From: Gammaproteobacteria bacterium | GTDB lineage: Bacteria; Pseudomonadota; Gammaproteobacteria; Ga0077536 | Reading direction: 5' to 3' | Assembly: GCA_963662545.2 (NCBI GenBank) | Contig: CAXXLL010000002.1 | Span: 384,001-448,000, forward strand | DNA: 64,000 bases | Shown here: piece after piece, positions 24,647-43,590 of the stretch | How positions within the stretch are numbered: position 1 is the stretch's first letter | How the letters are laid out: each line of letters begins with the position of its first letter | The notes under the pieces: generated by a model | What the model was told of the DNA's origin: nothing | The model's input: the letters and a program-made list of their open reading frames with translations, nothing else | Database searches by the model: none | Made by a program: the position numbers and the translations under genes

Positions 24647-25402
24647 TTAGTAAACGCGAAGAATTGCCGCCTCACCTTCACCCTCGATGTATTCCTCGAA
24701 GCCGTCGCCTGGCGGGTTGCCGTCGTAGATCTGGAATTCACGCTGCTGGCGCCAGGCCTCGCGGACGAAGGTATAGGGATCGAGCGCTGCCTGATCTCTC
24801 AAGCGCGTTGCGTCGAGCAGGTTCGCGCGTGAATTGATCGCGTTGACGGCACCCAAGGGTACGGTCACCACCGGCGCCAAATAGGTCAGCGGATTCAGCA
24901 GTATGCCCATGACCGGTGCGCCGATGTCGCGGTAGGAACTCGGTCCGAGAAAGGGCAGCATCAGGTAGGCGCCCTCGTTGGCGCCCCAGGTGCCGAAGGT
25001 CTGGCCCAGGTCTTCTTCGTGTCGTTCAAGCCCCAGGCTCGTGGCCGGGTCGAAAAGACCGCCTATTCCAACCGTGCTGTTGACGATTAAACGACCGGAG
25101 TCTCCGACGAACCGCCCCATTTTTCCTTGCAGCAGATCGTTGGCGATCGTGTTCAAAGAGCCCACGTTGTCAAAAAAGTTCGTAACGCCGTCACGGACCG
25201 GATCGGGGGCGATATCGGCGTATTTTTTCGCGACCGGTTCCAGAAAGGTCTTGTCCAGCGTGTCGTTGAACGCGTAAAACGTACGATTCATCGATTCGTG
25301 CGGGTCTCCGCTGTCCGTCGACGGCGTGGAGCTGCACCCTGCGAGGATGATCAAGGACAGGCACGCCAGTGAGACACGCGACCGAGTTCGAAGATCTACC
25401 AT
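24647..25402 (-). CDS. mlaA: MlaA/VacJ-family lipoprotein
   Basis: Lipobox LAGC, DPHESMNR, NSTVGIGGLFDPA, EDLGQT, YLMLPFLGPS. Confidence 0.9.
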   Translation of the reverse strand: MVDLRTRSRVSLACLSLIILAGCSSTPSTDSGDPHESMNRTFYAFNDTLDKTFLEPVAKKYADIAPDPVRDGVTNFFDNVGSLNTIANDLLQGKMGRFVGDSGRLIVNSTVGIGGLFDPATSLGLERHEEDLGQTFGTWGANEGAYLMLPFLGPSSYRDIGAPVMGILLNPLTYLAPVVTVPLGAVNAINSRANLLDATRLRDQAALDPYTFVREAWRQQREFQIYDGNPPGDGFEEYIEGEGEAAILRVY

Positions 25403-25486
25403 GATGTGTGTTCCGCGGAGAGATTTCTTATTGGTGTTGATATTGCCACAATTGTTGCTGTTTCGCATTAACCCGGCTCGGTGATT

Positions 25487-26089
25487 TCACGAGCCTCGCA
25501 GCATGGCCGTAATCTTGTCATTTAGCCTATTTACGAGGGAATCGAATCCCTCTTTCTTGATAACGGCCGTGTAATCCGCCCTCTTTAGCGATAGATCCGA
25601 TATACCCTGGGCAATGACGTTAACGATCAACCACTTGTTGTCGTTTCCACGCAACAAATAGGTGAGGGGGATTTTCTCCCCGTCGGCTTTTACCAGCGCC
25701 GTTTTCACAATGACGCCACGGCGACTTTTCTCCGTTTGTATCGTTTCGAAACGTTCGCCGGAAAATCCGGAAAAGTTAGTGGCATACGTCGCCGCGCTGA
25801 GCTTGCGAAAAACATTTTTAAAGCTGTCGCGCTGTGCGGGGGCGGTATCCTTCCAGTAGCGCCCGGTGACGATGCGCGCAATGGTATTGAAATCGAAACT
25901 GTCGTCGATCACGGGACTGATTAAATTGAAGCGGCCTTCGTAACCCAGTTGCTCCGCTCTGGTCATCGCTTCCAGCAGCGTTTCGTGCAGTCGCTCCACG
26001 ACCGCTCGGGGCGCCTGTTCCTCGGCAGCCATGGTCATGCCTGAAAGGGCGATAAGGGCTACGCAAATGGGTTTTCTGATGCGATTCAT
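25487..26089 (-). CDS. MlaC/HpnM-family periplasmic lipid carrier
   Basis: FDFNTIARIVTGRYW, WLIVNVIAQGISDLSLKRADY; hopanoid-cluster context suggests HpnM. Confidence 0.8.
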   Translation of the reverse strand: MNRIRKPICVALIALSGMTMAAEEQAPRAVVERLHETLLEAMTRAEQLGYEGRFNLISPVIDDSFDFNTIARIVTGRYWKDTAPAQRDSFKNVFRKLSAATYATNFSGFSGERFETIQTEKSRRGVIVKTALVKADGEKIPLTYLLRGNDNKWLIVNVIAQGISDLSLKRADYTAVIKKEGFDSLVNRLNDKITAMLRGS

Positions 26090-26150
26090 TTCGATCAACG
26101 ATCTTTCGTTCAATGAATTCATCGATTCTGCGGTGGATGTTTAGTTCCGC

Positions 26151-27275
26151 TCAATCGACGGCGGTTTTCTCATAACTGCGATTTTTCCATCGCGTACGCT
26201 CGCCACCCCAGTACCGAACCGCGGAGGTCCAGGTCATGAGGAGAAAGAGACACGCCGCGATCGGCAGGGACAATACCCAGAAACCGGGTAATCCGTAATA
26301 CTGAATCGTCGGCACATACGATAGCCCCATAGCCCCAAGCGCCGTGATGGCGGCCAGCTTGACCATTCCGGATCCAGATGCCAGGGCGAGGACGGGAACC
26401 ACAAAGCTGACGATTAGCAACACGCTGCACAGCACCAGCAACAGCGTTGAATAACGCAACTGCGTAAATGCCGAGCGCGCCACCATATTCCAGATATTCT
26501 CCAGTGATGCATACGGCCGGACCGCGCGGACATCGCGACTCAGGCCGATCCATGTGCGCCCACCCGCACGCTTGATCAGGCGTGCCAGCGTACAGTCGTC
26601 GATTATTGCACCATGCAAAGCTTCAAATCCGCCGATCTCCCTCAATTTATCAGTCTCGATCAAAATGCAACCGCCGGCGGCCGCCGCGATCCTCGAAGTT
26701 GGCCGGTTCGACAGGGCAAACGGATAGATCAGCTTAAAGAAGTAGATAAAGGGTGGCAGTAGGAGCTTTTCCCAGAGCGTATCCATAGGTAAACACGCCA
26801 TGATGGAAGCCAGTTGGAGCCGGTCATCCGCTGCGCGCTGCCTGAGTGCGGCGAGCATACCGGGAGCTAGCGCAATATCGGCATCCAGCAGCAGTGAATA
26901 ACGGGTATCCACCCGTTGGGCGGCTTGCTCGAGTGCCCAGAGTTTGCCACTCCAGCCGGGCGGCAGAGCGCTGCCGTCGATTACAGTGAGCTTATCGATC
27001 CGGAGGTTTCTCGCGATCTCACCGGTGCCGTCGCTGCTCTGGTCGTCAACCAGGATGATACCCGCGAGCTTTCCCTGTCGGGCGAGCGCCGTCAGGGTTT
27101 CCGCAATACATCGGGCCTCATCACGGGCTGGGATCAGCGCCGTCGTGTCGGAGAAATCCATGCGCGTCGTTCGCGCCTGCGCAGCAAGCGATTCGCGCGT
27201 GGACCAGGGTCGCCATGGGAGCACCAGCACGATCAGCCATATGCACGCGGCAAAGCTCGTGGCGGCGAGGAACAT
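26151..27275 (-). CDS. hpnB: Hopene-associated GT2 glycosyltransferase HpnB
   Basis: IPARDEA, VDDQSSDGT, GWSGKLWAL, LDADI, IIDDCTLA, MVARSAFTQL. Confidence 0.8.
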   Translation of the reverse strand: MFLAATSFAACIWLIVLVLPWRPWSTRESLAAQARTTRMDFSDTTALIPARDEARCIAETLTALARQGKLAGIILVDDQSSDGTGEIARNLRIDKLTVIDGSALPPGWSGKLWALEQAAQRVDTRYSLLLDADIALAPGMLAALRQRAADDRLQLASIMACLPMDTLWEKLLLPPFIYFFKLIYPFALSNRPTSRIAAAAGGCILIETDKLREIGGFEALHGAIIDDCTLARLIKRAGGRTWIGLSRDVRAVRPYASLENIWNMVARSAFTQLRYSTLLLVLCSVLLIVSFVVPVLALASGSGMVKLAAITALGAMGLSYVPTIQYYGLPGFWVLSLPIAACLFLLMTWTSAVRYWGGERTRWKNRSYEKTAVD

Positions 27276-27319
27276 TTTTCAGTGGGAGCAGCGCGAACGC
27301 GCGTCGATCACGGCGCTAG

Positions 27320-27479
27320 CAGTCTGTCGGACTTAGGGAATCGTAGCGAGGCGGGTGGGAGAGCGAGTCCAGATGTGTCATGGTTTGAGGCGAATAGTGG
27401 GGCTATTTAATGAAAACCATGGCGCATCTGGACCGCTATCCCAACGCCGTAGTAGATTCATCCTAAGTCCGACAGGCTG
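27320..27479. mobile_element. MITE, 160 bp, almost fully palindromic
   Basis: TIR CAGTCTGTCGGACTTAGG / CCTAAGTCCGACAGGCTG, inner arms GTCCAGATGTGTCATGGTTT / AAACCATGGCGCATCTGGAC, flanks CTAG / CTGG. Confidence 0.75.
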
Positions 27480-27493
27480 CTGGGAGAGAGCGA

Positions 27494-28621
27494 TCAGGCC
27501 ACACGTTTTTTGCTGCAGCTGCTCGCGGTTTCGGTTTCCGCGACCAGCCGCGGCGTCGTCGTGGTTTCGTCTTGATAAAAAAACGGTACTTCGGGCGCCA
27601 TGGGACCGTCGGTGCGCGGACCGCGAAGGAACACTTTGAGCGCCTTCAGGGGGTTGCGGAAAGTATCGTTGACTGCAGTTGCCTCGTAACCCGAATGAAC
27701 CATGCAGTCAGCGCATTTGGGATTGATACCGGTACCGTATTTTTCCCAAGCAGTCTCTTCGATGAGTTTGCGGAAGCTCGACGCGTAACCTTCGCCAACC
27801 AATAGGTAACATGGTTTTTGCCAGCCGAATACGTTACGCGTCGGATTTCCCCACGGCGTGCAGTGGTAAGTTTGGTTGCCGGCGAGAAAATCGAGGTACA
27901 GCGACGATTGATTGAACCGCCACTTGCGGCCGCGGCCCAAATCGAAAATATCGCGGAATAAGCGCTTGCTTCCGAGGCGCTTGAGAAAAACGTCCTGGCT
28001 TGGCGCCCGCTCGTAGGAGTACCCGGGTGATATCGTCACGCCCTCGACGCCAAGTGCCATCATTCGATCCATAAAATCTGCCACTTCCCCGGCCGATTCA
28101 CCTTGGAACAGGGTGCAATTGACTGTGACCCTGAAGCCGCGCTCGAGAGCAACGCGGATTACCTGTTCGCATTTCTCGTAGACGCCATCGCGGCATACGG
28201 AGGTATCGTGGCGTTCGCGGTTACCGTCGAGGTGGATAGAAAACGTCAGGTACGGCGACGGTTCGTAATCGTCCATGCGACGATCGAGCAGCAACGCGTT
28301 GGTGCACAAATACACAAATTTCTTGCGCCGGACATAGCCGCGAACGATGCGCGGCATGTCTTTATGGATCAGCGGTTCACCGCCGGCGATGGATACGATA
28401 GGCGCGCCGCACTCGTCGATCGCTTCCATACAGTCTTCATAGCTCAGCCGCTTGTCGAGAATTTCTTCGGGGTAATCGATCTTGCCGCAGCCGGCGCAGG
28501 CGAGGTTGCAACGGAAAAGAGGTTCCAGCATCAATACGAGCGGATATTGTTTGATTCCCCTGACCTTCTGCCCGAGTATGTATCGTCCAACGCGGACCTG
28601 TTGGACCAGTGGAACGCCCAT
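27494..28621 (-). CDS. hpnH: Adenosylhopane radical SAM synthase HpnH
   Basis: YPLVLMLEPLFRCNLACAGCGKI, CTPWGNPTRNVFGWQKPCYL, CADCMVHSGYE. Confidence 0.95.
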   Translation of the reverse strand: MGVPLVQQVRVGRYILGQKVRGIKQYPLVLMLEPLFRCNLACAGCGKIDYPEEILDKRLSYEDCMEAIDECGAPIVSIAGGEPLIHKDMPRIVRGYVRRKKFVYLCTNALLLDRRMDDYEPSPYLTFSIHLDGNRERHDTSVCRDGVYEKCEQVIRVALERGFRVTVNCTLFQGESAGEVADFMDRMMALGVEGVTISPGYSYERAPSQDVFLKRLGSKRLFRDIFDLGRGRKWRFNQSSLYLDFLAGNQTYHCTPWGNPTRNVFGWQKPCYLLVGEGYASSFRKLIEETAWEKYGTGINPKCADCMVHSGYEATAVNDTFRNPLKALKVFLRGPRTDGPMAPEVPFFYQDETTTTPRLVAETETASSCSKKRVA

Positions 28622-28910: not shown

Positions 28911-30806
28911 ATGACACAGAATTCGCACTATTCGCTGCTGGACAAAATCGATTCCCCAGAAGATCTTCGCGCCTTGCCGGAATCCTCCCTGGAACAGCTG
29001 GCGGGCGAACTCAGGGCCTTTCTCCTCGCATCCGTCAGTCAAAGCGGCGGACATTTCGCCGCGGGGCTGGGCTCCGTCGAACTCACCATCGCGCTCCATT
29101 ATCTATACCAAACGCCTGAAGATCGTATCGTATGGGACGTCGGACATCAGGCGTATCCGCATAAGATCCTGACGGGTCGCAAGGATCGCTTGCATACCAT
29201 CCGCAAGTGGGAGGGGCTCGCCCCGTTTCCCAAGCGGGCGGAAAGCCACTACGACACGTTTGGCGTCGGCCATTCGAGTACGTCCATCAGCGCCGCGCTC
29301 GGCATGGCCATCGCCGCCGAGCTGACCGGCTCGCAACGGCGCGCCGTCGCCGTCATCGGCGACGGCGCCATGACCGCGGGCCTCGCCTTCGAGGCCTTGA
29401 ATCACGCGGGCGCGCGGGGCACCGACCTGCTTGTGATTTTGAATGACAACGACATGTCGATATCGCCCAACGTCGGTGCTTTGTCCAACCGTTTCGCACG
29501 GATCCTCTCCGGTAAGTTGTATACGAGTCTTCGCGCGAACAGCAAGAAAGTCCTCTCGCAGATGCCGCCCGTGTGGGAGCTTGCGCGGCGCGCCGAGGAA
29601 CACGTCAAGGGCCTCATCGTTCCCGGCACGCTGTTCGAGGAATTCGGGTTCAATTACATCGGCCCGATCGACGGCCACGACCTGTCGACGCTCTTGAGTA
29701 CGATTCGCAACATCAAACGTCTCGACGGCCCGCAGCTTCTCCACGTGATTACCAAGAAGGGTAAAGGGTACGCGCTGGCCGAAGCGGATCCGGTGAAGTA
29801 TCACGGTGTTACGCCCTTCGATCCCAAGGTCGGAATCGTGCCATCGAACAAGCCGTCTGCGCTGACTTACAGCAAGGTCTTCGGCAACTGGATTTGCGAC
29901 ATGGCGGGTCTGGATCCGAGGCTTGTTGCGATTACGCCCGCCATGCGCGAAGGTTCGGGGCTCGTGCGTTTCGAAAAGGAATTTCCGGATCGTTACTTCG
30001 ACGTAGCGATTGCCGAGCAGCACAGCGTTAACGTCGCAGCGGGCATGGCCTGTGACGGCTTGAAACCGGTCGTCGCAATCTATTCGACGTTTCTTCAACG
30101 CGGATACGATCAGGTCATTCACGACGTCGTCAACCAGGAATTGCCGATTCTGTTCGCCCTCGATCGGGCCGGTCTGGTCGGCGCGGACGGTCCGACGCAT
30201 AACGGCAGTTATGACGTTTCTTTTCTGCGCTGTTTACCGAACATGACCGTGATGGCACCGGCCGACGAGAACGAATGTCGCCAGATGTTGTATACCGGTT
30301 TCATGCTCGATGGTCCGGCGGCCGTACGCTATCCTCGCGGCGCCGGGCCTGGCGTGGAAATATCCGAGGAGATGCAAGCGCTGCCGTTCGGCAAGGCGCA
30401 AATGAAACGTCACGGCGAAAGAGTCGCGATACTGGCTTTTGGAACGATGGTCGCGCCGGCGCTCGAGGTCGGTGAAAAGATCGACGCGACCGTGGTCAAT
30501 ATGCGCTTCATCAAGCCGCTCGACGTCGATATGGTGTTGGACGTGGTTGCCTCCCACGAGCTAACGATTACGGTCGAGGAAAGCGTCGTCGCCGGTGGTG
30601 CGGGCAGTGCCGTGAATGAATGCCTCGTCGAGGCGGGCTTAAGCGCCAACATCGCGAATTTCGGCTTACCCGACAGGCTCATCCAACACGGCTCGCGCGA
30701 CGATATGCTCGCCGATGCAGGCTTGACCGCTACGGGCATCGAGCAGTTCGTCAAGCAACGTCTGTCGCGGCTCGAAGGCATGGCCCCCGCAGCGCACACA
30801 GCCTGA
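28911..30806 (+). CDS. dxs: 1-deoxy-D-xylulose-5-phosphate synthase
   Basis: [26 protein letters not shown] motif, [13 protein letters not shown]. Confidence 0.96.
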
Positions 30807-30848
30807 ACAAAGCGGAGCACATCAACCAGTCAGTGTGCCTGGCGCCGG

Positions 30849-31928
30849 CTATTTCAGCGCGGCATCGAACGCATCGAACAGGCGTTCGAGATCGGCCGAC
30901 GAGATCTCGCCCATCGCGGAAATCCTGAATACGCGATCCGACAGAGCGCCCTGGCCGGCGTAAATGATGAAACCGCGAGCTTTTAAGATACGGTGGAGTT
31001 CGTCATAGGTCTTGCCGGGCGGTAGTTCGAACGCGTGGAGAACGCATGAGCAATCCCCGGCATCCAGCAGTGGGGTTACATCGAGTTTGACGAGACGATC
31101 GCGAATCGCGGCGAGCCTTGCGACGAACAACCGGCGTCTGGCCTGCCATCCGCCCGCCTCGATAAATTCATCCAGCGCCTCATCGAGGGCGTAAAACGTC
31201 TGGATGGATTGCGTGAAAGGCGTGCCGTTTTGATCCTGTCGCGCCAGGTAGTCGCGTAAATCGAGATAGACGGAACGACGTGCCGCATTGTGCTCGCCCA
31301 GCGCCGCACGCTTTACGATCACGAAGGCCGTCCCTGGCACCCCGTGCAGACATTTGTTGGCCGTCGCCGCGCACGCGTCGAGCTGCCAGTCGTCGAATTC
31401 GAGCGTTTCCGCTCCGAAGCTGCTGACGCCATCCAGAAGAAGGCGCACGCCCGCCGCCTGACAGATCTCGCCCAGGGTCGCGAGATCGTTGAGCCGGCCG
31501 GTAGTCGTCTCATGATGGACGGCGGCAATATGGGTGATAGAGGTACCGATCGATAAGGCGTTTTCTATTGCGGCCAGGTCCATTGGCTCGTCCCAGGCCG
31601 AAGCGATTCGTTTAAACGCGATACCGTGAGCTTCCGCAATACGGCTCATACGTTCGCCGTAAACGCCGTTTTCGACGACCAGCAACGAGCCATCGTCCGG
31701 TACGCAACTCGTTAACATGGCCTCCACCGCTGCGGTCCCCGATCCCGTAAGCAGCACCGCCGCCCAATCGGCCGCCGGCAGGTCGTAGATCCCGAGCAGC
31801 TTGCTGCGAAGGCCGCCCTGCAGTTCGGCGAATTCCACCTCGCGGTGACAGAGATCGGGCCGCAGCATGGCCGTTCGGACGCGTTCGCTCAGGGTGACGG
31901 GACCCGGATTGAGAAGAATAAGGTTCAA
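30849..31928 (-). CDS. aepZ: 2-aminoethylphosphonate aminotransferase (class V PLP, AepZ/PhnW-like)
   Basis: LLNPGPV, GSGTAAVEA, VHHETTTG, DGVSSFG, ANKCLHG; follows the decarboxylase gene. Confidence 0.85.
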   Translation of the reverse strand: MNLILLNPGPVTLSERVRTAMLRPDLCHREVEFAELQGGLRSKLLGIYDLPAADWAAVLLTGSGTAAVEAMLTSCVPDDGSLLVVENGVYGERMSRIAEAHGIAFKRIASAWDEPMDLAAIENALSIGTSITHIAAVHHETTTGRLNDLATLGEICQAAGVRLLLDGVSSFGAETLEFDDWQLDACAATANKCLHGVPGTAFVIVKRAALGEHNAARRSVYLDLRDYLARQDQNGTPFTQSIQTFYALDEALDEFIEAGGWQARRRLFVARLAAIRDRLVKLDVTPLLDAGDCSCVLHAFELPPGKTYDELHRILKARGFIIYAGQGALSDRVFRISAMGEISSADLERLFDAFDAALK

Positions 31929-33076
31929 GTTCTCGTTCCTATGTGTTCCATTAGGCGTTCGAGCACGGCCGATGGGCTTATGGACGGCCGCGGCAGGGGG
32001 TCGATGGCGCCGGTTTTGATCTTGAAATGCATGAATCGAACACCGTCGTCCGCATCGAGAAAGCGCTCGATGTCATCGAGTCCGCCGCCACGTATGACAC
32101 GGCGGTAGCCGCAAGCGGCAGCAATGCCGGCGAAATCGATGCGCGAAGAGACCGTCTTCTGGGCGCCCGTCGAATCGTGTGCCTCATTATCGAGTAACAA
32201 GTGGACGAGATTGCGCGGCGCATACGCGCCGGCAGTCGCCAGGTTTCCCATACGCATGAGCGCCGCGCCGTCGCCGTCGATGACGATCACGCGTAGATCG
32301 GGACGCGCCATGGCCAGTCCCATGCCGAGAGACGATCCGCAGCCCATCGAACCCACCAGGTAAAGGTGGTTCGGGCGATCCGCCAGCGCGTACAACTCGC
32401 GCCCGGTGTAACCCGTCGTCGCGACGATGACCGTTTTCCCATCGCCTGTCATGTCCAACAGTGATCGCAGTACCTCACTTCGCGAATGCCGCTCTTTTTC
32501 GGGATGCACATGGTCGTTTCCTTCGATCACCGCCGTCTCGAGTGCGTCCGCGCGCGGCGCTGGGTGCAGGGAGTGCGATTCGCAGGTTCCCTTCTGCATG
32601 ATCAGCGCAAATGGGCGCCGTTCAATTTTCATATGCCGATCGAGCGCATCCAAGGTCGGATCCACGGCATCGCTTTCGCGCGGAAAGGTCGCCCAGGGGA
32701 TCGTCATCGTCTCAAACAGTTGTTCGGTGATCGCACCCATCAACTCGTGCTGTGGTTCATCATTGACACCGCGCGCACCACGATGCGTACAGACGATCAA
32801 CACGGGAATACGAAAGGTATGGGTCAAGGAGGTCAGTGGGCTGACGGCGTTGCCGAGCCCGGAATTCTGCATCATCGCGATGCTGCGCGTGCCGCCGATC
32901 CAGGCGCCCGCCGCTGCAGCCACCGCATCCCCTTCGTTGGCGGAGGATACGTAGTCCAGTTCCGGATCCGCGATAATGGCGTTAATGAACGGCGTCAGAA
33001 AAGAGCAAGGCACGCCGGCGTACCAGGTGAATCCCCGATCGCGTGCGGGATCGACGAAATCGCTTGCGTTGATCAT
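31925..33076 (-). CDS. aepY: Phosphonopyruvate decarboxylase
   Basis: GVPCSFL, MQNSGLGN, DEPQH, GSMG, DGDGAALM, HDSTG. Confidence 0.93.
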   Translation of the reverse strand: MINASDFVDPARDRGFTWYAGVPCSFLTPFINAIIADPELDYVSSANEGDAVAAAAGAWIGGTRSIAMMQNSGLGNAVSPLTSLTHTFRIPVLIVCTHRGARGVNDEPQHELMGAITEQLFETMTIPWATFPRESDAVDPTLDALDRHMKIERRPFALIMQKGTCESHSLHPAPRADALETAVIEGNDHVHPEKERHSRSEVLRSLLDMTGDGKTVIVATTGYTGRELYALADRPNHLYLVGSMGCGSSLGMGLAMARPDLRVIVIDGDGAALMRMGNLATAGAYAPRNLVHLLLDNEAHDSTGAQKTVSSRIDFAGIAAACGYRRVIRGGGLDDIERFLDADDGVRFMHFKIKTGAIDPLPRPSISPSAVLERLMEHIGTRT

Positions 33077-33161
33077 GACCGCTTCAAGCGAATCAGACCG
33101 GAATATTTTACGCCCCATGAATCAAAAAATAGCGGCAAGACTTGCATGCTGTTGGCTGCTA

Positions 33162-35553: not shown

Positions 35554-36285
35554 CTAGCGGCGCGAACGGCCAGAGAAAACCTGCCGGAAACCGAAATACG
35601 CGATCGCGTCCTTCATATTGGAGACGAAGCGCCGCAGCGGATGCATGCCGCGATCCGTGACGTATTCAAAGGTCAGCGCGATCCGCCGTTCACCCTGACC
35701 GCAGGGCGAGATCCGGTGATACAGTTTGTCGCCATTGAAGAACACGAAGGATCCCGGCAACAGCGAGATCTCACCGCGAACTGTTTCGCATTCGAAATTC
35801 TCGCGAAACAGCTCGTATTCCAATCGGCAGCTCGATTCTTCGACGAGACCGATCAGGGCAGTGTAACGTTGGCCCTTGTAATACGACGTGTCGTAATGGA
35901 AACCGATGTTATCGCCGGGCTCCGTGTAATAGTAGAGCGCGTAGGTGTGTGGATCGTCATCCGCGCAGAACAACAGTTCCCGTCCACACAAGGTATGCAT
36001 GAACGATGCGAGTTCCGGCGCACGGTAGAGCGCCGCGAATGCCGATGCATGGCGGTCGAGGTCGAAGCGGGAGATGCTGCCGCCCTTCTTGTGTCCGGGA
36101 ATAAAATTCCGGTGAATGCGAGGAGCGAGCGAGGGTAGAGCCGCCAGGAGGGGATCGAGCAAATGTCGCGGAAGGAAGTCCGGAATCATTATGAATTCGT
36201 CGTTGGCTAGGAATTCCGCGCGCAATGCGGCCGCGTCGAGGCTCGCAAGATGTCTGGCGAAAGGCGTGGGATCCCCGGCGTGCAT
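35554..36285 (-). CDS. Fe(II)/2-oxoglutarate-dependent oxygenase
   Basis: HxD (FHYDT), distal His (LYHRI), Arg (ERRIAL). Confidence 0.78.
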   Translation of the reverse strand: MHAGDPTPFARHLASLDAAALRAEFLANDEFIMIPDFLPRHLLDPLLAALPSLAPRIHRNFIPGHKKGGSISRFDLDRHASAFAALYRAPELASFMHTLCGRELLFCADDDPHTYALYYYTEPGDNIGFHYDTSYYKGQRYTALIGLVEESSCRLEYELFRENFECETVRGEISLLPGSFVFFNGDKLYHRISPCGQGERRIALTFEYVTDRGMHPLRRFVSNMKDAIAYFGFRQVFSGRSRR

Positions 36286-36456: not shown

Positions 36457-37473
36457 ATGATGGTTCGGTTTACCAAATTCATATTTTTGTTTGTCGGAAT
36501 CGCGCTGCTCGTCACTGTGCTGCTCGAAACGGATCTCAACGAGTTGTGGATCGCGGTATCGCGCGTCGGAGTCCTGGGCATGATGACCGTCATGCTCGTC
36601 TACGCACTTTATTTCGGAGCGGATGCAATCAGCTGGCAAATCACCCTGCCCGCAGTCGAAATCGATCGGCGCTGGATCGGCCGCATGTTCGTCGTTCGTA
36701 TGATCGGCGAAGCTTATAACAACATCACGCCCACCGCTTCGCTAGGCGGGGAGCCGATCAAGGCGTGGTTGCTCAAGGTCAACTGGGGCGTTCCACTTCG
36801 CGAATCCGGGGCCTCGCTGGTGATCGCAAAAACGACGAGCATGTTTTCCCTGGTCGTCTTCGTTGCCGTCGGCGTCTTCATGATGTTCGGGCATCCCGAG
36901 GTTACGGCGGCGCACAAATCAGTTGCCGTTTGGGGTTTGAGCATCATCGTAATCGCGGCCATCGTGTTTTTTCTGATGCAGCATCTCAAACTTTCCACGT
37001 ACATCGCACGTAAGCTTGGGCGCAGCCGATTTGAACAGCGGCTTGCCGGCGTGATCCGCGCGGTCGAGGACATCGATCGACAGTTCGCGAGTTTCTACAG
37101 CGAACACGGTGTGAGATTGTGGTGGTCTTCGTTGTTCGCGATGGCGAACTGGGTGTTGGGCGTCGTCGAGGTCTATCTGATCATGGATTTCATCGGCTAC
37201 CCAGCGAGCTTCACCGAAGCCTGGATGATCGAATGCATGGTACAACTCGTGCGGACGATCACTTTCTTTATTCCGGCCGGCCTCGGGACACAGGAGGGTG
37301 CGTTTCTAATTGGCGTTGGGGTGTTGACGGGCGCGCCGTCCGCGGGCGTCGCCACAGCGCTCGTACGCCGCTTCCGTGACCTGATATGGATTGGCTTGAG
37401 CCTGTTTCTGGCGACTTTCTATTCCGTGACACCGGCGCACGTCGCGCGCGAGGAGCTGGACTCGGCTGACTGA
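36457..37473 (+). CDS. LPG-synthase-TM / flippase-like membrane protein (HpnL-like)
   Basis: Multi-TM, NNITPTASLGGEPIK and FFIPAGLGTQEG motifs. Confidence 0.75.
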   Translation: MMVRFTKFIFLFVGIALLVTVLLETDLNELWIAVSRVGVLGMMTVMLVYALYFGADAISWQITLPAVEIDRRWIGRMFVVRMIGEAYNNITPTASLGGEPIKAWLLKVNWGVPLRESGASLVIAKTTSMFSLVVFVAVGVFMMFGHPEVTAAHKSVAVWGLSIIVIAAIVFFLMQHLKLSTYIARKLGRSRFEQRLAGVIRAVEDIDRQFASFYSEHGVRLWWSSLFAMANWVLGVVEVYLIMDFIGYPASFTEAWMIECMVQLVRTITFFIPAGLGTQEGAFLIGVGVLTGAPSAGVATALVRRFRDLIWIGLSLFLATFYSVTPAHVAREELDSAD

Positions 37474-37525
37474 AGGCGGTGCCTCGAATTTCTCTCTACG
37501 GATCTTCGAGCTTAGGGTAAGGCGA

Positions 37526-38518
37526 TCAGGGCACCATACCGCGCAACCGAAACCAGGCCAACGCGTCCTCGATCGCGGTGCGGCCCGGGCGCGCAGTGTA
37601 GCCGAGTTCTTTTTCGGCGCGAACCGATTCGAAGTACATCTTCTTGGCGGCCATACGTAATCCGTCGATCGTGGCCTGCGGCTCCGGACCGTCGGTGATC
37701 CGCGCCCATAGTTCCGAGATCCATGCGATCGGATAAACCGCGAGTCGGGGTAGCCGCACCATCGGTTTGCGGCGCCCGCAGCACTCGGCGACGATCTCCA
37801 AGATCTCACGCAAAGACAGATCGTCGCCGCCGAGGATGTAGCGGCGTCCAACCACGCCTTTTTCGAAGGCGAGCAGGTGTCCGCGAGCTACGTCATCGAC
37901 GTGGGCGATATTGAGACCGGTGTCGACGTAGGCGGGAATGCGTCCGAGCGCAGCGTCCCGCACGATACGTCCGGTGGGCGTCGGCTTGATGTCGCGTGGC
38001 CCGATCGGCGTCGACGGATTGACGATCACGGCTGGCAGCGATGCCGAGGATACGAGTTCGTCGACCACCGCCTCGGCCAGGAATTTCGAACGCTTGTAGT
38101 GCCCGATCATGTCGTCCAGGCTCACGGGCGTGTCTTCGTTGGCCGGACTGTCGTCGCGCTTGAGCCCGAGGGTTGCGACGCTGCTGGTATAGACGATGCG
38201 TTTCACGCCTGCTTCGAGCGCCGCCCGCATGATGGACCGTGTGCCATCGACATTACTGTGGTAGAGCACCTTTGGGTCGCGCACCCAGAGGCGATAATCC
38301 GCGGCGACATGGTAGAGCGCGTCGCAGCCGCGGCACGCCCCTGCGAGCGATGCGGGATCGCGCAGATCGCCCAGGCAGACCTCGAGCGCGAGCCCCTCAA
38401 TGTTGAAACGGTCGCTGTCCGGACGGGTCAGTACACGCACGGCATGCCCCGCGTCCAGCAGCAACCTGACCACCGCGCTGCCCAGAAACCCCGTCGCACC
38501 CGTGACCAGGGTCGTCAT
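37526..38518 (-). CDS. hpnA: Hopanoid-associated sugar epimerase/dehydratase HpnA
   Basis: TGATGFLG, HVAADYRLW, GHYKRSKF, GPRDIKPTPTG. Confidence 0.9.
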   Translation of the reverse strand: MTTLVTGATGFLGSAVVRLLLDAGHAVRVLTRPDSDRFNIEGLALEVCLGDLRDPASLAGACRGCDALYHVAADYRLWVRDPKVLYHSNVDGTRSIMRAALEAGVKRIVYTSSVATLGLKRDDSPANEDTPVSLDDMIGHYKRSKFLAEAVVDELVSSASLPAVIVNPSTPIGPRDIKPTPTGRIVRDAALGRIPAYVDTGLNIAHVDDVARGHLLAFEKGVVGRRYILGGDDLSLREILEIVAECCGRRKPMVRLPRLAVYPIAWISELWARITDGPEPQATIDGLRMAAKKMYFESVRAEKELGYTARPGRTAIEDALAWFRLRGMVP

Positions 38519-39126
38519 CGGCTTAGCCGACTTCGTGATTGCATGGCGCGGAAGTATTGGACGGCCACGATCGCGCACGCCACCGGGGCACCGACTGCCG
38601 CCGCACACAGGAACCATTCGAGCGAACCGCTGAGCGTCACCGCGGGCATCAAATACAGCACATCTTCGGCTTCGAACCCGGCCCACTGCGGCTGCCGGGT
38701 AGCCGTTTTGCCGAGATGATTCTCCAAATCGTTCCGCAAATGAAAGATGGCCGCCACAGTGACCCCCGCGACTGCGCCCATGATCGCCGCTTTTGTGCCT
38801 AAGCTGCCTTGTGTAAGCCCGATACCGATGCCGACGAACATGCCAACCGTGACGAGAGCATCCGAGGCCAGGTCGAAATAGTGCCCGAAGCGGCTCGTCT
38901 TGCCACTCAAGCGCGCCAGTTCACCATCCGTGTGGTCGAGAAAATTGGAAACCACGATCAACAGCGCCGCGAGATTGGGTGACTCGCCGCGCGCAAAGCA
39001 GGCGGCCCCGGCGAGGCCGACGAGCAGTCTCAGGCCCGTCAAATGATTCGGATGGACGAACCGCGAGCCGACGAATGGCGTGACGATAAAAGATGCGATA
39101 CGTGCATCCCAGGGCTTGCGATTCAC
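38515..39126 (-). CDS. CDP-alcohol phosphatidyltransferase-family protein
   Basis: PNHLT and DHTDGELAR...SRFGHYFDLASD signature; GTG start overlaps the hpnN stop. Confidence 0.9.
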   Translation of the reverse strand: MNRKPWDARIASFIVTPFVGSRFVHPNHLTGLRLLVGLAGAACFARGESPNLAALLIVVSNFLDHTDGELARLSGKTSRFGHYFDLASDALVTVGMFVGIGIGLTQGSLGTKAAIMGAVAGVTVAAIFHLRNDLENHLGKTATRQPQWAGFEAEDVLYLMPAVTLSGSLEWFLCAAAVGAPVACAIVAVQYFRAMQSRSRLSR

Positions 39127-41756
39127 GATGCCACGCGCTCTACTTTGACAAAGCGCTCGAGCAGTGCCGGTAACACGACCAGCGTGCACAGGATGGTCAG
39201 GGTCAGACCGATGGTGAGCATCACGCCCATGCTTGCCGTACCCGCATGCGTTGAAACCGCGAGGTTGCCGAAACTCGCGGTGGTCGTCAAAGCGCTGAAC
39301 AGGACAGCGCGTGCAGTGCTGGTCTTCAGCAGCGGGCCGTCGCCGGGACCGGGGGTCTTGTAGCGGTGCAGGATGTGCAGAGCGCTATCGACGCCGATCC
39401 CCATGAGGAGCGGCAACGCGATGATATTCGCGAAGTTGAACGACATGCCCGCCCACACGGTGGCGGCCGTCGTCAGTAAACCGGCCAGCAACAGGGGGGC
39501 CATGACGACGAGGACTTCCGCAATGCGCCGCAGTATGAAGAAGAGCACCAGTGCAATCAGTATAAAAGCCGAGGCGAATGCCTGGTAAAAGGCGCCCGTG
39601 ACCGCGCGACTCGCCTCGATATTGATCACCGGCGTGCCGGTCGCCGCAGGTCCCGTAATGGCCCGTACGGCGTCGACGAATGCCGCGAGCCGGTCGTTGT
39701 CGTCGAGGTTTTGCGCCGGGAGAATCTCGAGCCGGAAAAGGCCGTCATCGCTGATCCAGCGCCGCCGGAGATCCTCGGGAAGCGACGCGATATCGATCGG
39801 CGACGCCGCTAGCCCCTCGGAAATCAGCGTGAGTTGAGGCGCGAAATGGCGCATGAGTTTGTCTTCGAGCGCGATTAACAAAGCCGGCGCCTGGTCTGCT
39901 CCCGCGGATTCGACCGCGACCTCCAGGCGCTTCAACGCGAGCGCTAGCGCTGCTGCCGCTCGCGCTAGCGATGCGCTGGCGCTGTTGGCAATCGCATCGC
40001 AGCGACGGCTGAGTTTTCTAGCGAGCGCGGTGATATCGCCTGCGACAAGCGGGTGTGGCTCTTGGAGTTCGAGATCGGGTCCGACGACGAAAGCGAGATC
40101 CTCGATAAGGGCGAGTTTTTGTTCTTGCTCGGACGGCACCAGATCGAATGCCGTCCGCACGTTCAGAACAGCGGGGCTCTCCTCGAGTCGAGCAGCCAGT
40201 TCCAGGGCGGGGTCGGCGGACGCGGCGACCACGTCGATTGCGTAGAGTTCGGCATCGCCGTCGTCCAGAAGATCCGTCAAGGTCGTCACCGATTCGGCAG
40301 CGGGATCGTTGAGGTGGATGGGATTGTGGTCGAATTCCGCGAATGGCACGGTCAAGGCCGCCGCGAGCGCGAGTAAGAACGTCCCGGCCAGGATGATCGA
40401 CGGTCCGCGCTGCGGCCGTTCGGCGATGAGCTGGACTTTTCGCCGAGCATCAGCTCTAGGCGCGGGTAAGGCTTGCAGCAGCGCCGGCAGGATCGTAAAG
40501 CTGCAGCCCAGCCCGATGAACATCCCGACGCCCGAGATCAGACCGAGCTCCGCGACACCGCGGTAGTCCGTCGGGATAAACGCGAAGAACGCGATCGCGG
40601 TCGTTATCGCGCACAGGATAATGGATGTTCCAATGTGACGCGATGCATGAGAAATGGCGCGAACCTTATCGGTTGAGATGGACATTTCGCGGTAGCGCAG
40701 GCAGATGTGAATGGCGAAATCCACGCCCAGCCCCACGTAGAGTACGGCGAATGCGATCGAGATCATGTTCAGCGTGCCGACTGCCGCGACCGCAAAGCTC
40801 GCGGTAAAGATCAGACCGATGATCAGGGTGAGCAGGGTTGCCGCGACGAGACTCAAGGAGCGCAGGCCGACGATGAGGCAAATAGCCACCATGGCAAAAG
40901 CGAGCACGCCGGCCCGTTCGGCGCCCCGCACTACGCTCTTCATCTCGTCATAGCTCAGCGCGGCGGCGCCGGTGAGACGGACGCGAACGCCCGATCCCTC
41001 GGTAAAGCCCATCGACTCGACGGTGCTGCGTATCGATGTAATCGCCGCTTCGCCCGGCAGAATGCTGCTGAAATCGAGCCGCGGCTGTACTGTGAAAATG
41101 ACGCGCGAAGTATCGGCAACGGACTCGCCCAGCATCAAGGTCTGCCACGACATGGGCGTCGGGTCGCCGTCAAGGTAGGCGTTGATGGCGTCTGCGGTGG
41201 CGCGGAAAACAGGGTCGAGCCGGAGTTCGGGCGCCTGATCCCTGGTCTCGGCGGCTTCGAGGAGTAATGTCATGAATCCACGCAACCCGGGGTCCGGCGC
41301 GAGGCGTGCGAGAAACGGCTGTGCGGCGCTGATTTCGTCCGCGAGTGTCTGCAGGGCGTCGGTGTCAAGGTAGAGGAATTGATTGCGACGAAAGAATTCG
41401 ATGCCGGCCGGATGAAAGACGCCGGCCGCGGTGAATTCGTTTTCGGCCAGGCGCCGGGCGAGCGCATCGGACGCTTGGCGCGCGAGGTCGGGCGTCGTTC
41501 CGTCGACGACCACGACGATGGTGTCGGTGAAAAAAGGAAATGCGGTTTTGAAATTCCTGTACGCCACTCGCCAGGGGAGACGATCGGACAGCATGTCCTG
41601 GGTATCGGTGTTGATGCGCACATTAGAGACGGTGTACGACGCACCGGTGCCGGCGAGGACCAGCGCGAAAATCAAGGTCGCGAGCCAGTGCCGTTGCGCG
41701 GCGCCGACTATTTTCTCAATCAGGTCCGGAGCGAGCAGCTCGAAGCGGTTGCGCAT
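39123..41756 (-). CDS. hpnN: MMPL/RND hopanoid transporter HpnN
   Basis: Two TM bundles with GLGVDFAIH and GIGVDSALH, SALTTTASFGNL. Confidence 0.88.
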   Translation of the reverse strand: MRNRFELLAPDLIEKIVGAAQRHWLATLIFALVLAGTGASYTVSNVRINTDTQDMLSDRLPWRVAYRNFKTAFPFFTDTIVVVVDGTTPDLARQASDALARRLAENEFTAAGVFHPAGIEFFRRNQFLYLDTDALQTLADEISAAQPFLARLAPDPGLRGFMTLLLEAAETRDQAPELRLDPVFRATADAINAYLDGDPTPMSWQTLMLGESVADTSRVIFTVQPRLDFSSILPGEAAITSIRSTVESMGFTEGSGVRVRLTGAAALSYDEMKSVVRGAERAGVLAFAMVAICLIVGLRSLSLVAATLLTLIIGLIFTASFAVAAVGTLNMISIAFAVLYVGLGVDFAIHICLRYREMSISTDKVRAISHASRHIGTSIILCAITTAIAFFAFIPTDYRGVAELGLISGVGMFIGLGCSFTILPALLQALPAPRADARRKVQLIAERPQRGPSIILAGTFLLALAAALTVPFAEFDHNPIHLNDPAAESVTTLTDLLDDGDAELYAIDVVAASADPALELAARLEESPAVLNVRTAFDLVPSEQEQKLALIEDLAFVVGPDLELQEPHPLVAGDITALARKLSRRCDAIANSASASLARAAAALALALKRLEVAVESAGADQAPALLIALEDKLMRHFAPQLTLISEGLAASPIDIASLPEDLRRRWISDDGLFRLEILPAQNLDDNDRLAAFVDAVRAITGPAATGTPVINIEASRAVTGAFYQAFASAFILIALVLFFILRRIAEVLVVMAPLLLAGLLTTAATVWAGMSFNFANIIALPLLMGIGVDSALHILHRYKTPGPGDGPLLKTSTARAVLFSALTTTASFGNLAVSTHAGTASMGVMLTIGLTLTILCTLVVLPALLERFVKVERVAS

Positions 41757-41772
41757 GCGGACACAGCCGGTC

Positions 41773-42453
41773 TTATTGACCGAGGGCGCGAGCGGCCTCG
41801 GCGAGCCGGGCCAGCGCTGCCCGATACCAGGCCGCAAGTTTCAACAAGGGGAAGATTTCGCCGGGGTCACTCATCAAATGGCAGACCATTGCGGTCAATC
41901 TGCGCCGTCCATTCGCGTCGAGCGCCTTTTCCGCGGCGGCCGGGAGAGTGAAACCGGCCGGATCGACAATACACCGGATGGCCGCGAATTTGGCGTTCGC
42001 CGAATTCGCCACGCGGGCGATGGCGGCGGATTCCATATCAACGGCGTCGGCGACGTGCGTTGCGTACAAGTCGGCCTTGTCGCGGACCGAGGCAATCGCG
42101 CGAGGCGCGGTGTAGAACGCCCCGGTTGCGGCTGCAAGCGGCGCCAAGCGGATGAGAAGCTCCCGCCGCAGGCCGTTATCCGTTGCGCGTCTTTTGCCGC
42201 TGTCAGAGACGGTAGCACTCCCGATCAGGAGCTGAACGGGATCCATTGCCGGATTCAAACCGCCGGCGAGTCCCCAGCTCAACAGCGCTTCACAGCCGGC
42301 GCCGAGCAGTTCCTCCGCCGCGCGCGTGGCATTTTCGATGCCTGGCCCGGCAAGCTTGAGGATGGGTTCATGAATGCCGAGGAAGCGGGGTGCGCATCCG
42401 GAGAATGCCCGGGCTTCCTGATCGAGCGCAGCGATGACGCCGATCCGCATCAA
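41773..42453 (-). CDS. hpnG: Nucleoside phosphorylase-family protein HpnG
   Basis: LLSWGLAGGL, AVDMESAA, AIRCIVD; hopanoid context. Confidence 0.82.
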   Translation of the reverse strand: MMRIGVIAALDQEARAFSGCAPRFLGIHEPILKLAGPGIENATRAAEELLGAGCEALLSWGLAGGLNPAMDPVQLLIGSATVSDSGKRRATDNGLRRELLIRLAPLAAATGAFYTAPRAIASVRDKADLYATHVADAVDMESAAIARVANSANAKFAAIRCIVDPAGFTLPAAAEKALDANGRRRLTAMVCHLMSDPGEIFPLLKLAAWYRAALARLAEAARALGQ

Positions 42454-42507
42454 AGCACACTGCAGCGGACGGATCGGACGATCGTTACCTGCGGATCGCA
42501 GGCCGGG

Positions 42508-43590
42508 TCAAGGGGCAAGATGAGTCCCCGCGATCTCGGCCACGCTGGCGAGGGGGGTCGCGATCTGGCGTTGCGGGAGGCCGGCCGAGCTGAGTTCAAA
42601 CAAAGCGCGCAAGCGGCGATGGGAAGAAACCAACAGGTTGGTCGTTGCCACCGTCACCTTGACCGCGCGGCGTGAGATCTTCACTTCGTCACCACTCGAA
42701 AAACCGCGATTGCGGTCGAGCTTGCGCAAGGTCAATACGGCCATGCCGAGAGCCCACAAGCAGAACCGTCGTACGCCCGCTTCACCGCGCGGGAGAATCA
42801 GCGTGTAGCGCAGCGCATTGCGCAGGTGCCCGTGCGCCGTGGCAATGAGTTGCCCCAGACCCTCCTCGAATTGGGGTCCGCCCATCCCGGGCTTGACGCG
42901 GCTCAAGGTGACGCCTTTCTTCTCGAAGATATCCCGCGGTAGCCAGCACGCGCCGCGCGCACGGTCATCCCAGATGTCTTTCAGGATGTTGGTCATCTGC
43001 AGGCCCTGGCCGAACGAAACCGCGAGCTGCATCATTTCCTTTTCCCGCGGCTTGAGTTCCGTACAGTAATCACAGAACAGTGACGTCAACATCTCGCCGA
43101 CGACGCCCGCAACGTAATAGCAATACCGATCCATAGCCGCCTGGTCATCGACGCCGTCGAGCGTTTCCTGATCCTGGTAGAACACCATCCCCTCGGCCAT
43201 GATGCGCACGCAGCGCGCCATCGCCACGCGCTGGGTATCGTTCAGTCCATGGGTGATACGAATGACGCGGGCCGTTTCACGGATCAATTCCCGTTCAGCC
43301 GCGCTCGCGTGGCCGGCGAGCCGCGGCGCCAGTTCTTCGGCGAAGGCTTGGGCCGCGCTTTCACCCTCGACGATCGCGATAAAGCGTTCTGAAAACGCGC
43401 GTTTGTCGGCGACGGAGAGGTCGGCGTCATCCTCGATGGTGTCGGCGATGCGGCACAGCAGATAGGCGTTGGACACCGCGCGGCACAGCGCGTCCGGCAA
43501 CTGCGGGATGGTCAGCGCGAACGTGCGTGACACCCCCTGCAGGATATGCTGTTGGAATTCCTCGTCTTTTCTGCTTTGGGCAGTGTCCAT
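42508..43590 (-). CDS. Squalene synthase (single-subunit FPP farnesyltransferase type)
   Basis: VSRTFAL, YLLCRIADTIEDD, YCYYVAGVVG, GLQMTNILKD, VKISR. Confidence 0.88.
   Translation of the reverse strand: MDTAQSRKDEEFQQHILQGVSRTFALTIPQLPDALCRAVSNAYLLCRIADTIEDDADLSVADKRAFSERFIAIVEGESAAQAFAEELAPRLAGHASAAERELIRETARVIRITHGLNDTQRVAMARCVRIMAEGMVFYQDQETLDGVDDQAAMDRYCYYVAGVVGEMLTSLFCDYCTELKPREKEMMQLAVSFGQGLQMTNILKDIWDDRARGACWLPRDIFEKKGVTLSRVKPGMGGPQFEEGLGQLIATAHGHLRNALRYTLILPRGEAGVRRFCLWALGMAVLTLRKLDRNRGFSSGDEVKISRRAVKVTVATTNLLVSSHRRLRALFELSSAGLPQRQIATPLASVAEIAGTHLAP

Follow-up and report, generated by a model that had tools for sequence, protein, structure and literature searches.

The 64,000-nucleotide window analysed here (positions 384,001 to 448,000 of contig CAXXLL010000002.1, assembly GCA_963662545.2, from a gammaproteobacterium of the GTDB lineage Ga0077536) contains a 16-gene locus in which genes for hopanoid synthesis and export are interleaved with genes for the synthesis and activation of 2-aminoethylphosphonate (AEP). 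We consider the chances about even that this locus is one functional unit making a phosphonate-headed hopanoid, in which a cytidine diphosphate (CDP)-alcohol phosphotransferase (CDPOH) would move AEP or hydroxy-AEP from its cytidine monophosphate (CMP)-activated form onto a bacteriohopanepolyol, an HpnL-like protein would flip the product, and HpnN, HpnM and an MlaA-like lipoprotein would export it. A preliminary description, made from the letters of the window, had AEP esterified to a bacteriohopanepolyol or to a co-exported lipid; the phyletic pattern of the transferase, its fusions to HpnN and the linkage of both gene sets in distant lineages favour a hopanoid-dependent product, the acceptor itself being something that we infer.

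Gene content and junctions of the locus

The 16 open reading frames (ORFs) at 24647-43605 were annotated by Pfam and NCBIfam profile scans, with the curated NCBIfam cut-offs applied. The scans bore out all 16 genes in the order first described, with the reservation that the proteins then called HpnG and flippase-like are recognised as to family but score under the curated cut-offs; HpnH, HpnN, HpnA, HpnB and HpnM all score above theirs (538, 928, 487, 383 and 205 bits). From high to low coordinates, the genes are:

42508..43605, minus strand: squalene synthase, single-enzyme SQS_PSY type (PF00494, 194 bits; TIGR01559, 110.7 bits, under cut-off)
41773..42453, minus strand: HpnG-like nucleosidase/phosphorylase (PF01048, 72.9 bits; TIGR03468, 149.2 bits, under the cut-off of 187.1)
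39123..41837 (ORF limits), minus strand: HpnN, RND/MMPL hopanoid exporter (TIGR03480, 928 bits, cut-off 751.85)
38515..39126 (ORF 38515-39189), minus strand: CDPOH, 203 amino acids (PF01066, 54.5 bits)
37526..38518 (ORF 37526-38686), minus strand: HpnA, NAD-dependent epimerase/dehydratase-type short-chain dehydrogenase/reductase (TIGR03466, 486.7 bits, cut-off 367.65)
36457..37473, plus strand: HpnL-like membrane protein with MprF flippase-type LPG_synthase_TM domain (PF03706, 118.3 bits; TIGR03476, 163.6 bits, under the cut-off of 195.65)
35554..36285, minus strand: Fe(II)/2-oxoglutarate (2OG) oxygenase, HalD-like (PF23169 HalD, 31.8 bits)
34804..35541, minus strand: stand-alone PntC-like cytidylyltransferase, NTP_transf_3 (PF12804, 61 bits)
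33162..34865 (ORF limits), minus strand: PepM, phosphoenolpyruvate (PEP) mutase, fused to a second PntC-type nucleotidyltransferase (TIGR02320, 377.2 bits, cut-off 319.55; PF12804 at residues 323-436)
31925..33118, minus strand: Ppd, phosphonopyruvate decarboxylase (TIGR03297, 411.4 bits, cut-off 312.5)
30849..31928, minus strand: AEP aminotransferase, AEPT (TIGR03301, 384.7 bits, cut-off 360.8)
28911..30806, plus strand: Dxs, between the AEP genes and hpnH (TIGR00204, 904.5 bits)
27494..28621, minus strand: HpnH, radical-SAM adenosylhopane synthase (TIGR03470, 538.2 bits, cut-off 225.05)
26151..27275, minus strand: HpnB, hopene-associated family-2 glycosyltransferase (TIGR03469, 383.2 bits, cut-off 379.25)
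25487..26122, minus strand: HpnM, MlaC-like periplasmic lipid carrier (TIGR03481, 204.8 bits, cut-off 160.1; PF05494, 136 bits)
24647..25468, minus strand: MlaA-like outer-membrane lipoprotein, the 'HpnS' of PMC12324291 (PF04333, 232.9 bits)

In transcription order these genes form five units: the squalene synthase (SQS)-hpnG-hpnN-CDPOH-hpnA unit (minus strand), the HpnL-like gene (plus), the genes from oxygenase to AEP transaminase, 36285 down to 30849 (minus), dxs (plus), and the genes from HpnH to the MlaA-like lipoprotein, 28621 down to 24647 (minus). A promoter and terminator scan of 24100-44000 found 6 promoter-like sites (6.1 expected) and 28 terminator-like ones (19.5 ± 5.1 expected), and as this gave no usable operon boundaries the transcription units were inferred from strand and spacing only. 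The squalene synthase, first gene of its unit, has syntenic copies in relatives at 51-75% identity, and no second dxs match was found anywhere in the genome. For the HpnG-like protein the TIGR03468 cut-off was not reached although the match spans profile positions 21-211 of 212. The true start of HpnN is probably near residue 38 of its ORF, and the PepM-nucleotidyltransferase protein is likely to start at the ATG at 34814.

Reading at the level of single bases shows that the TGA stop of hpnN and the GTG start of CDPOH share four nucleotides (GTGA), which places the transferase start at 39126 and gives it a length of 203 amino acids, and that the TGA stop of CDPOH and the ATG of hpnA also share four nucleotides (ATGA), which places the hpnA start at 38518. 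The transferase thus overlaps both of its neighbours, as first described, and to judge from these bases the overlaps are of the classic type of translationally coupled genes. By their coordinates, the AEP aminotransferase and ppd genes overlap by 4 nt as well.

The transferase and its fusions

The CDPOH protein contains the complete Dx2DGx2ARx8Gx3Dx3D motif (D64x2D67G68x2A71R72x8G81x3D85x3D89), with seven of the eight named residues invariant in 33 aligned sequences, and its AlphaFold2 (AF2) model (pLDDT 93) has as nearest solved folds IPCT-DIPPS (4mnd), AF2299 (4q7c) and the PIP synthases (5d92), at TM 0.62-0.74, with CEPT1/CHPT1 among the weaker matches. Taken as sequence and model, the motif and the multi-helix membrane fold settle the family membership, and neither identifies the acceptor. 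We propose that the protein is a CMP-(hydroxy)AEP:lipid-alcohol phosphonotransferase.

The transferase is also tied covalently to its two contexts in some bacteria. A search for longer homologues with the 203-aa transferase gave 129 matches at E <= 1e-20, of which 120 were listed; 112 of these 120 are fusions of the transferase to a HalD-like oxygenase (~450-515 aa), five are MMPL-transferase proteins (~1080 aa) and three have the transferase domain only, while no CDPOH-HpnL fusion is among them. All five ~1080-aa protein clusters consist of a full-length HpnN (930-988 bits, cut-off 751.85) followed, after a short in-frame linker, by a C-terminal transferase that is 50-56% identical to the CDPOH of the window; three of these are closely related to one another, the other two being distinct. 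One enzyme family is thus covalently tied to the oxygenase of the AEP module in some bacteria, and in others to the hopanoid exporter HpnN, whose role is given as inner-membrane hopanoid transport in a table in PMC12324291. In the window the transferase and oxygenase are separate genes, unlike in the 112 fusions listed. An apparent 1149-aa transferase fusion in locus L162 was rejected, the long frame being an antisense shadow of gyrA.

In a tree of 33 transferases, genomic context tracks taxonomy, and the copies adjacent to HpnN and those adjacent to the AEP module do not form two deep clades; the HpnA-adjacent transferase of 'Proteobacteria bacterium SZAS-87' nests in the Burkholderiaceae/Steroidobacteraceae clade (support 99/99), and the branches of three divergent paralogues are very long and their placement is unsure. 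Judging from this tree, the difference in context does not stem from an old gene duplication. Some genomes (G065, G148, G211) carry two to four paralogous transferases. In genome G148 two transferases are part of the same cluster (locus L166, G148:C10; 10266-10844 and 13713-14225), one lying between hpnN and hpnA, the other, which is divergent (~40% identity), by the oxygenase, and G065 has one beside shc and hpnN, the other beside pepM.

Distribution of transferase, squalene-hopene cyclase and PepM

In an even sample of the class to which the window belongs, the transferase was scored in 400 genomes (G298 left out), the squalene-hopene cyclase gene (shc) in 401 and pepM in 400, with the transferase counted as present at E <= 1e-12. 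The transferase family was found in 28/400 genomes from 17 families, distributed as follows:

Transferase present, 28 genomes: shc in 27, pepM in 27
Transferase absent, 372 genomes: shc in 40, pepM in 14
pepM present and transferase absent, 14 genomes: shc in 2 (G220, G282), pepM in 14

The sole transferase genome with no shc match, G181, is 62% complete and has hpnH, and the sole one with no pepM match, G060, is 75% complete. From these counts the transferase occurs only where the phosphonate donor and hopanoids coexist, and pepM alone is indifferent to hopanoids. Transferase and pepM have been gained or lost jointly on an shc-positive background, as seen in the same-genus pairs G416/G260 and G138/G329 and in the same-family pair G365/G198, and of the genomes in the class sample that bear hopanoid genes, ~40% have the transferase (27/67). 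In at least seven sampled genomes the transferase lies within ~1.5-4 kb of pepM.

Among the first 50 PepM-centred loci (see below), shc is found in 44/50 genomes, the six misses being assemblies of 1.9-4.6 Mb. Genomes flagged as unpublished (G089, G191, G346 and G358 of the class sample, G045 and G047 of the 50) are all positive for the counted features, and leaving them out gives 23/24 for shc as well as for pepM in the class, and 42/48 for shc in the PepM-centred loci. In a cyanobacterial sample the transferase was present in 7/301 genomes, with shc in 7/7 of those; this is a count of carriers only and no test of dependence.

Linkage of both gene sets in other genomes

The 80 loci most similar to the PepM-nucleotidyltransferase protein were compared up to 10 kb on each side, several of those lacking a hopanoid gene being short contigs. 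At least one hopanoid gene is present in 37/80, with 31/46 in the non-cyanobacterial loci. Wherever a PepM-centred locus has HpnN, CDPOH and HpnA, CDPOH is the middle one of the three, within 5 kb (19/19), and in loci from seven other families of the class HpnN adjoins CDPOH in 7/7, with HpnA also present in six. On this comparison of gene orders, the hpnN-CDPOH-hpnA arrangement is not due to chance. The G148 and G411 loci repeat the order of the window with SQS and shc directly upstream, and in G132, G224, G065 and G416, where pepM is on another contig, CDPOH remains with hpnN. The hpnH match by the AEP module of G411 (G411:C31:59428-60383) is split by in-frame stops (one TGA, one TAA), which points to a broken gene or an assembly error.

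Both sets are also joined in other gene orders. The Nostocales strain HT-58-2 has an SQS fragment, hpnJ, hpnI, a B12-radical-SAM gene, CDPOH, a PhnY*-like hydroxylase, the nucleotidyltransferase, pepM-nucleotidyltransferase, ppd and aept, followed by hpnH, hpnA and hpnG. In SZAS-87 and the metagenome-assembled genome BP_729 the order is hpnH, shc, hpnG, hpnA, CDPOH and then pepM, and in Pararobbsia (L050) it is CDPOH, HpnL, nucleotidyltransferase, pepM-nucleotidyltransferase, aept, dxs and hpnN. In Pandoraea the only HpnN match is ~8.7 kb from CDPOH in 5/5 genomes checked and dxs follows the AEP genes, so that the AEPT-dxs junction recurs in Pandoraea and Pararobbsia. The HT-58-2 gene just upstream of the transferase encodes a B12-binding radical-SAM protein (PhpK/HpnJ-like; L032:6654-8291), and the PhnY*-type hydroxylase (L032:8923-9684), which matches the methylphosphonate hydroxylase family at 208 bits, under cut-off, is a non-orthologous replacement of the HalD-like enzyme at the same position.

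These gene orders bear on whether the interleaving has any functional meaning at all, as two envelope-related gene sets could have been joined by rearrangement and then simply inherited within a single lineage of gammaproteobacteria. The full 16-gene order is indeed common mainly to close relatives (60-85% identity), the flanking Amidohydro_2 and NnrU genes are syntenic in close relatives only, and the promoter and terminator scan gave nothing above chance. However, differing gene orders unite both sets in Nostocales, Pararobbsia/Pandoraea, SZAS-87 and seven further families, fusion proteins exist, and the phyletic dependence extends across 17 families, so that we regard a meaningless interleaving as highly improbable.

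The phosphonate enzymes and the predicted head group

The oxygenase residues H130, D132, H190 and R201 are invariant in 26 sequences. Its AF2 model (pLDDT 92) has as nearest folds HalD (7u6h, TM 0.73), HalB and the BesD-family hydroxylase 7jsd (TM ~0.7); a sequence-only search of the PDB gave only HalD, at E 0.008, and the relatives emerged from the fold search. The protein lacks the halogenase HxG/A and retains the aspartate in H130-Y-D132, and this retained ligand makes it a hydroxylase-type member of the HalD/BesD fold and not a halogenase. Free amino acids bearing a terminal amine are the substrates of its solved relatives, in keeping with an AEP-like substrate, and we predict the enzyme to be an AEP 1-hydroxylase.

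The best solved relative of the stand-alone nucleotidyltransferase is 6pd1 (nucleotidyl transferase/class V aminotransferase, E 3.7e-11, residues 2-235), which we take to be an AEP-specific PntC, and LicC (1jyk) comes next. PepM matches the solved mussel PEP mutase (1m1b, E 4.8e-123), and its translation shows the EDKxxxxxNS motif that is defined as Ppm-specific in PMC6697681.

The nature of the donor would be different if the transferase put a non-phosphonate head group (e.g. from a CDP-polyol or CDP-inositol-type donor made by the stand-alone nucleotidyltransferase) on a hopanoid or another HpnN cargo, with the AEP genes working independently for a glycan or protein. While the stand-alone nucleotidyltransferase and the transferase resemble the two halves of IPCT-DIPPS, and the two to four paralogous transferases in G065, G148 and G211 suggest more than one donor or acceptor, such a donor seems quite improbable to us given that pepM is present in 27/28 transferase genomes (the exception being the 75% complete one), that the oxygenase is the fusion partner in 112 of the 120 longer homologues listed, that transferase and pepM are close neighbours in the at least seven genomes mentioned above and that 6pd1 is the best solved relative of the nucleotidyltransferase. 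Moreover, the Pfam and NCBIfam scans found no LicD-type or glycan genes in the cluster.

A proposed pathway to a phosphonate-headed hopanoid

By homology, Dxs, squalene synthase, HpnH and the HpnG-like protein, together with the remote cyclase, would lead to C35 ribosylhopane or bacteriohopanepolyol, the HpnG step being adenosylhopane to ribosylhopane (table in PMC12324291). PepM, Ppd and the transaminase would likewise make AEP, and the two PntC-type nucleotidyltransferases should be able to make CMP-AEP; the route from AEP through CMP-AEP to a lipid hydroxyl had been proposed from the start, and its gene assignments hold. The Fe/2OG hydroxylase would give 1-hydroxy-AEP, as is also predicted in PMC8942020, and its fusion to a membrane transferase suggests a site of action at the membrane, the substrate being CMP-AEP or the head group once it is bound to the lipid. 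CDPOH would use the CMP donor to put the (hydroxy)AEP-phosphonyl group on a hydroxyl of the hopanoid, releasing CMP, the likeliest acceptor being the terminal (C-35) hydroxyl of bacteriohopanetetrol (BHT) or a sugar added by HpnB. The product would be flipped across the inner membrane by the HpnL-like MprF-type protein, and HpnN, HpnM and the MlaA-like lipoprotein would carry it to the outer membrane. Neither HpnI nor HpnJ has a match in the genome that passes the curated cut-offs, which leaves the phosphonate module and HpnB as the only side-chain tailoring candidates found. Since HpnA constantly adjoins the transferase, we speculate that it supplies the acceptor, for example by reducing ribosylhopane to bacteriohopanetetrol, a step to which, to our knowledge, no enzyme has been assigned.

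Several points weigh against such a pathway. The shc gene is not in the window, its only match in the genome (G000:C2:2532438-2534309) being ~2.1 Mb away on the same contig, and hpnH does not discriminate C35 from other acceptors, being present in 24/27 CDPOH genomes and in 34/40 shc-positive genomes without CDPOH. The related genomes in the counts are not independent, for which reason no P value is given for the co-occurrence. Only 6/34 of the cyanobacterial PepM-centred loci have a hopanoid gene, and in 80 transferase-centred loci, mostly from Burkholderiaceae, a hopanoid gene (at least 50% coverage, within 10 kb) was found in four and dxs in 22. In Paraburkholderia, CDPOH-oxygenase, HpnL and nucleotidyltransferase are apart from pepM and the hopanoid genes, with pepM-nucleotidyltransferase elsewhere in the genome in 5/5; in Paraburkholderia graminis C4D1M this block is flanked by genes for a PhoX-like phosphatase and a major facilitator superfamily transporter (L159:7060-9015, L159:13389-14849). 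The nearest solved relatives of CDPOH use soluble inositol phosphates or CDP-diacylglycerol, and we know of no CDP-alcohol transferase with a triterpenoid acceptor. The hopanoids of Burkholderia, Nostoc and their relatives have been analysed previously. Finally, neither a phosphorus-bearing hopanoid nor a characterised product of the module was found in the open-licence literature and bioRxiv, and what has been predicted in print for the gene set is a phosphonolipid of the glycerolipid type (PMC8942020).

Part of this evidence fits a conventional phosphonolipid, in which (hydroxy)AEP is carried by diacylglycerol or a similar non-hopanoid lipid that partners the hopanoids in the outer membrane; as such a lipid would share the hopanoid export route, the clustering and co-occurrence would be explained. 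Besides being the published prediction for the seven-gene core (PMC8942020; for Nostoc, the legend to Fig. 7 of PMC5987646), it agrees with most Burkholderiaceae and Nostoc loci having no hopanoid gene within 10 kb, with Kennedy-type enzymes moving CDP-activated head groups to diacylglycerol (CEPT1/CHPT1 being weaker fold matches of CDPOH) and with no phosphorus-bearing hopanoid having been found in print. However, a diacylglycerol acceptor gives no reason for the shc dependence, with a single carrier of 28 lacking an shc match (62% complete, hpnH present), whereas pepM is free of shc, 12/14 pepM genomes without CDPOH having none. The HpnN fusions and the 4-nt coupling to hpnN and hpnA tie the enzyme to the hopanoid machinery, and the glycerol-type lipid is itself uncharacterised although predicted for the commonest ppm neighbourhood type (PMC8942020). 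We consider a conventional phosphonolipid the main rival of a phosphonate-headed hopanoid, rather unlikely if well within reach.

Comparison with known systems

The seven phosphonate genes correspond to the core of the 'Burkholderiales_CDP-OH' family of Li & Horsman 2022 (PMC8942020), which these authors regard as identical to what Yu et al. 2013 called 'Group 1 phosphonolipids'. That core comprises a Ppm-PntC fusion, Ppd, AEPT, an Fe/2OG oxygenase, a second PntC, a CDP-OH transferase and an HpnL-type protein. This is the most abundant family, with 318/882 RefSeq ppm neighbourhoods, and is predicted to make a 1-hydroxy-AEP lipid that was never characterised (PMC8942020); the window has the same predicted head group and an equally uncharacterised product. 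Compared with those of Burkholderiaceae, the window proteins show identities of 46-58% (transferase), 49-57% (oxygenase), 58-67% (PepM-nucleotidyltransferase) and 48-53% (stand-alone nucleotidyltransferase). Unlike in Burkholderiales_CDP-OH, the seven genes in the window are not contiguous, as the transferase is parted from the core by hpnA and is in the hpnN operon, and the HpnL-like gene is on the opposite strand. The HpnL-like protein is a putative counterpart of Burkholderiales HpnL, to which it is only 23-29% identical; it scores under the TIGR03476 cut-off and is 42-74% identical to the product of the same-position gene in gammaproteobacterial relatives. The available text of PMC8942020 does not tie Burkholderiales_CDP-OH to hopanoids, the remark on terpenes there concerning another family, GCF 731. 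In the Nostoc version of the module, the two lipid genes are named CDP-alcohol phosphatidyltransferase and hpnL in the Fig. 7 legend of PMC5987646.

Similar linkage in other proteobacteria, mentioned in the preliminary description with no characterised product, is in print as passing remarks from 2020-2022 (PMC7285500, PMC8776678, PMC8942020). The pepM-terpene linkage of Nitrosococcus has a one-sentence remark in PMC7285500, taken up as GCF 731 in PMC8942020, and that of Roseomonas is described as 'an undiscovered terpene-phosphonate' in PMC8776678. By these descriptions, the antiSMASH 'phosphonate-terpene' loci have pepM/ppd/aept adjoining a squalene synthase or cyclase, with speculation on a 'phosphonoterpene'. 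As far as their text is available, the remarks include no transferase, HpnN, HpnL or phyletic analysis, whereas in the window the link runs via hpnN, CDPOH, hpnA, dxs and hpnH, and the cyclase is remote.

On the hopanoid side, a 2025 preprint (PMC12324291) reports hpnL, hpnM and the mlaA-like 'hpnS' as enriched near shc and calls the function of HpnL unclear; the word phosphonate has 0 occurrences in its available text. The components of its HpnN-HpnM-HpnS export model are matched in the window, where HpnH, HpnG-like, HpnA, HpnB, HpnN, HpnM and MlaA-like proteins are all encoded with a relative of HpnL nearby. That the HpnL-type gene of the window lies within a phosphonate head-group module provides a candidate substrate for HpnL.

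The proposed reaction resembles Kennedy-type transfer (CEPT1/CHPT1, IPCT-DIPPS and PIP synthases, with LicC/PntC activation), with the same motif, a six-helix fold, and a cytidylyl-activated head group passing to an alcohol as CMP leaves; it differs in the proposed CMP-phosphonate donor and triterpenoid polyol acceptor, neither of them known from a bacterial member. As in MprF, a membrane protein of the LPG_synthase_TM type accompanies an enzyme adding an amine-bearing head group to a lipid, but here the synthase is a CDP-OH transferase, not aminoacyl-tRNA-dependent, and is a separate gene. The only characterised bacterial lipid with the predicted head group that is named in the available text of PMC8942020 is the 1-hydroxy-AEP sphingophosphonolipid of Bacteriovorax stolpii, which differs from the proposed product in its ceramide anchor, its gene cluster belonging to the more distant GCF 761 (PMC8942020).

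Genomic surroundings

For the 362-aa ORF at 23217-24305 (minus strand), immediately downstream of the MlaA-like gene, neither Pfam nor NCBIfam gave a match, and none of the 160 compared loci contains a relative. This ORF and the flanking Amidohydro_2 and NnrU genes are not counted here as belonging to the system, the latter two recurring only in close relatives. At least five transposase/integrase genes (DDE_Tnp_1, IS1595-type, IS481-type rve) are present at 47361-57809, ~4 kb beyond the end of the squalene synthase gene, in a region with a GC content of 0.46-0.55 compared to ~0.58-0.63 in the cluster. A separate Mla/MCE-type lipid ABC transporter operon (MlaE permease, ATPase, MlaD-domain protein, ABC_trans_aux lipoprotein) lies at 2531-5768, 19 kb from the HpnM/MlaA-like pair, and it is followed at 5839-12570 by signalling genes for a CHASE2-adenylate/guanylate cyclase, an FHA-domain protein, a PP2C phosphatase and a CHASE2-Ser/Thr kinase.

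Implications

The gene set itself and, in passing remarks, the linkage of pepM to terpene genes were already known, while the counts placing the transferase only with both pathways, the double fusion evidence and the link of HpnL and HpnA to the phosphonate module were not found in print. Two fields each have an unsolved half: the phosphonate side never found the lipid of this module, and the hopanoid side lists HpnL, HpnA and HpnB as being of unknown function (for HpnL, see PMC12324291), unlinked to phosphonates. Even with a glycerolipid as the acceptor, an explanation would have to be found for the strict dependence on hopanoids.

That phosphono-hopanoids are an unrecognised lipid class, with the commonest RefSeq ppm family capping bacteriohopanepolyols with AEP or 1-hydroxy-AEP, we put at slightly below an even chance. 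On that reading HpnL would be a flippase, HpnN an exporter that is sometimes fused to the synthase, and HpnA, by way of speculation, an NAD(P)H-dependent enzyme making the acceptor hydroxyl, a set of roles for which the case is nearly, if not quite, balanced. The product should then have the mass of BHT + 107.01 Da or + 123.01 Da with a C-P bond, for which the computed [M+H]+ values are 654.4857 (AEP form) and 670.4806 (hydroxy-AEP form), and would combine a rigid triterpenoid anchor with a head group that is zwitterionic and resists phosphatases. Standard hopanoid work-ups (acetylation, periodate cleavage) could overlook a lipid of this kind. Such a lipid would be a new class of bacterial membrane lipid, would change the interpretation of bacteriohopanepolyol biomarkers and of marine and soil phosphonate pools, and would explain part of the envelope robustness in Burkholderiaceae and nitrifiers.

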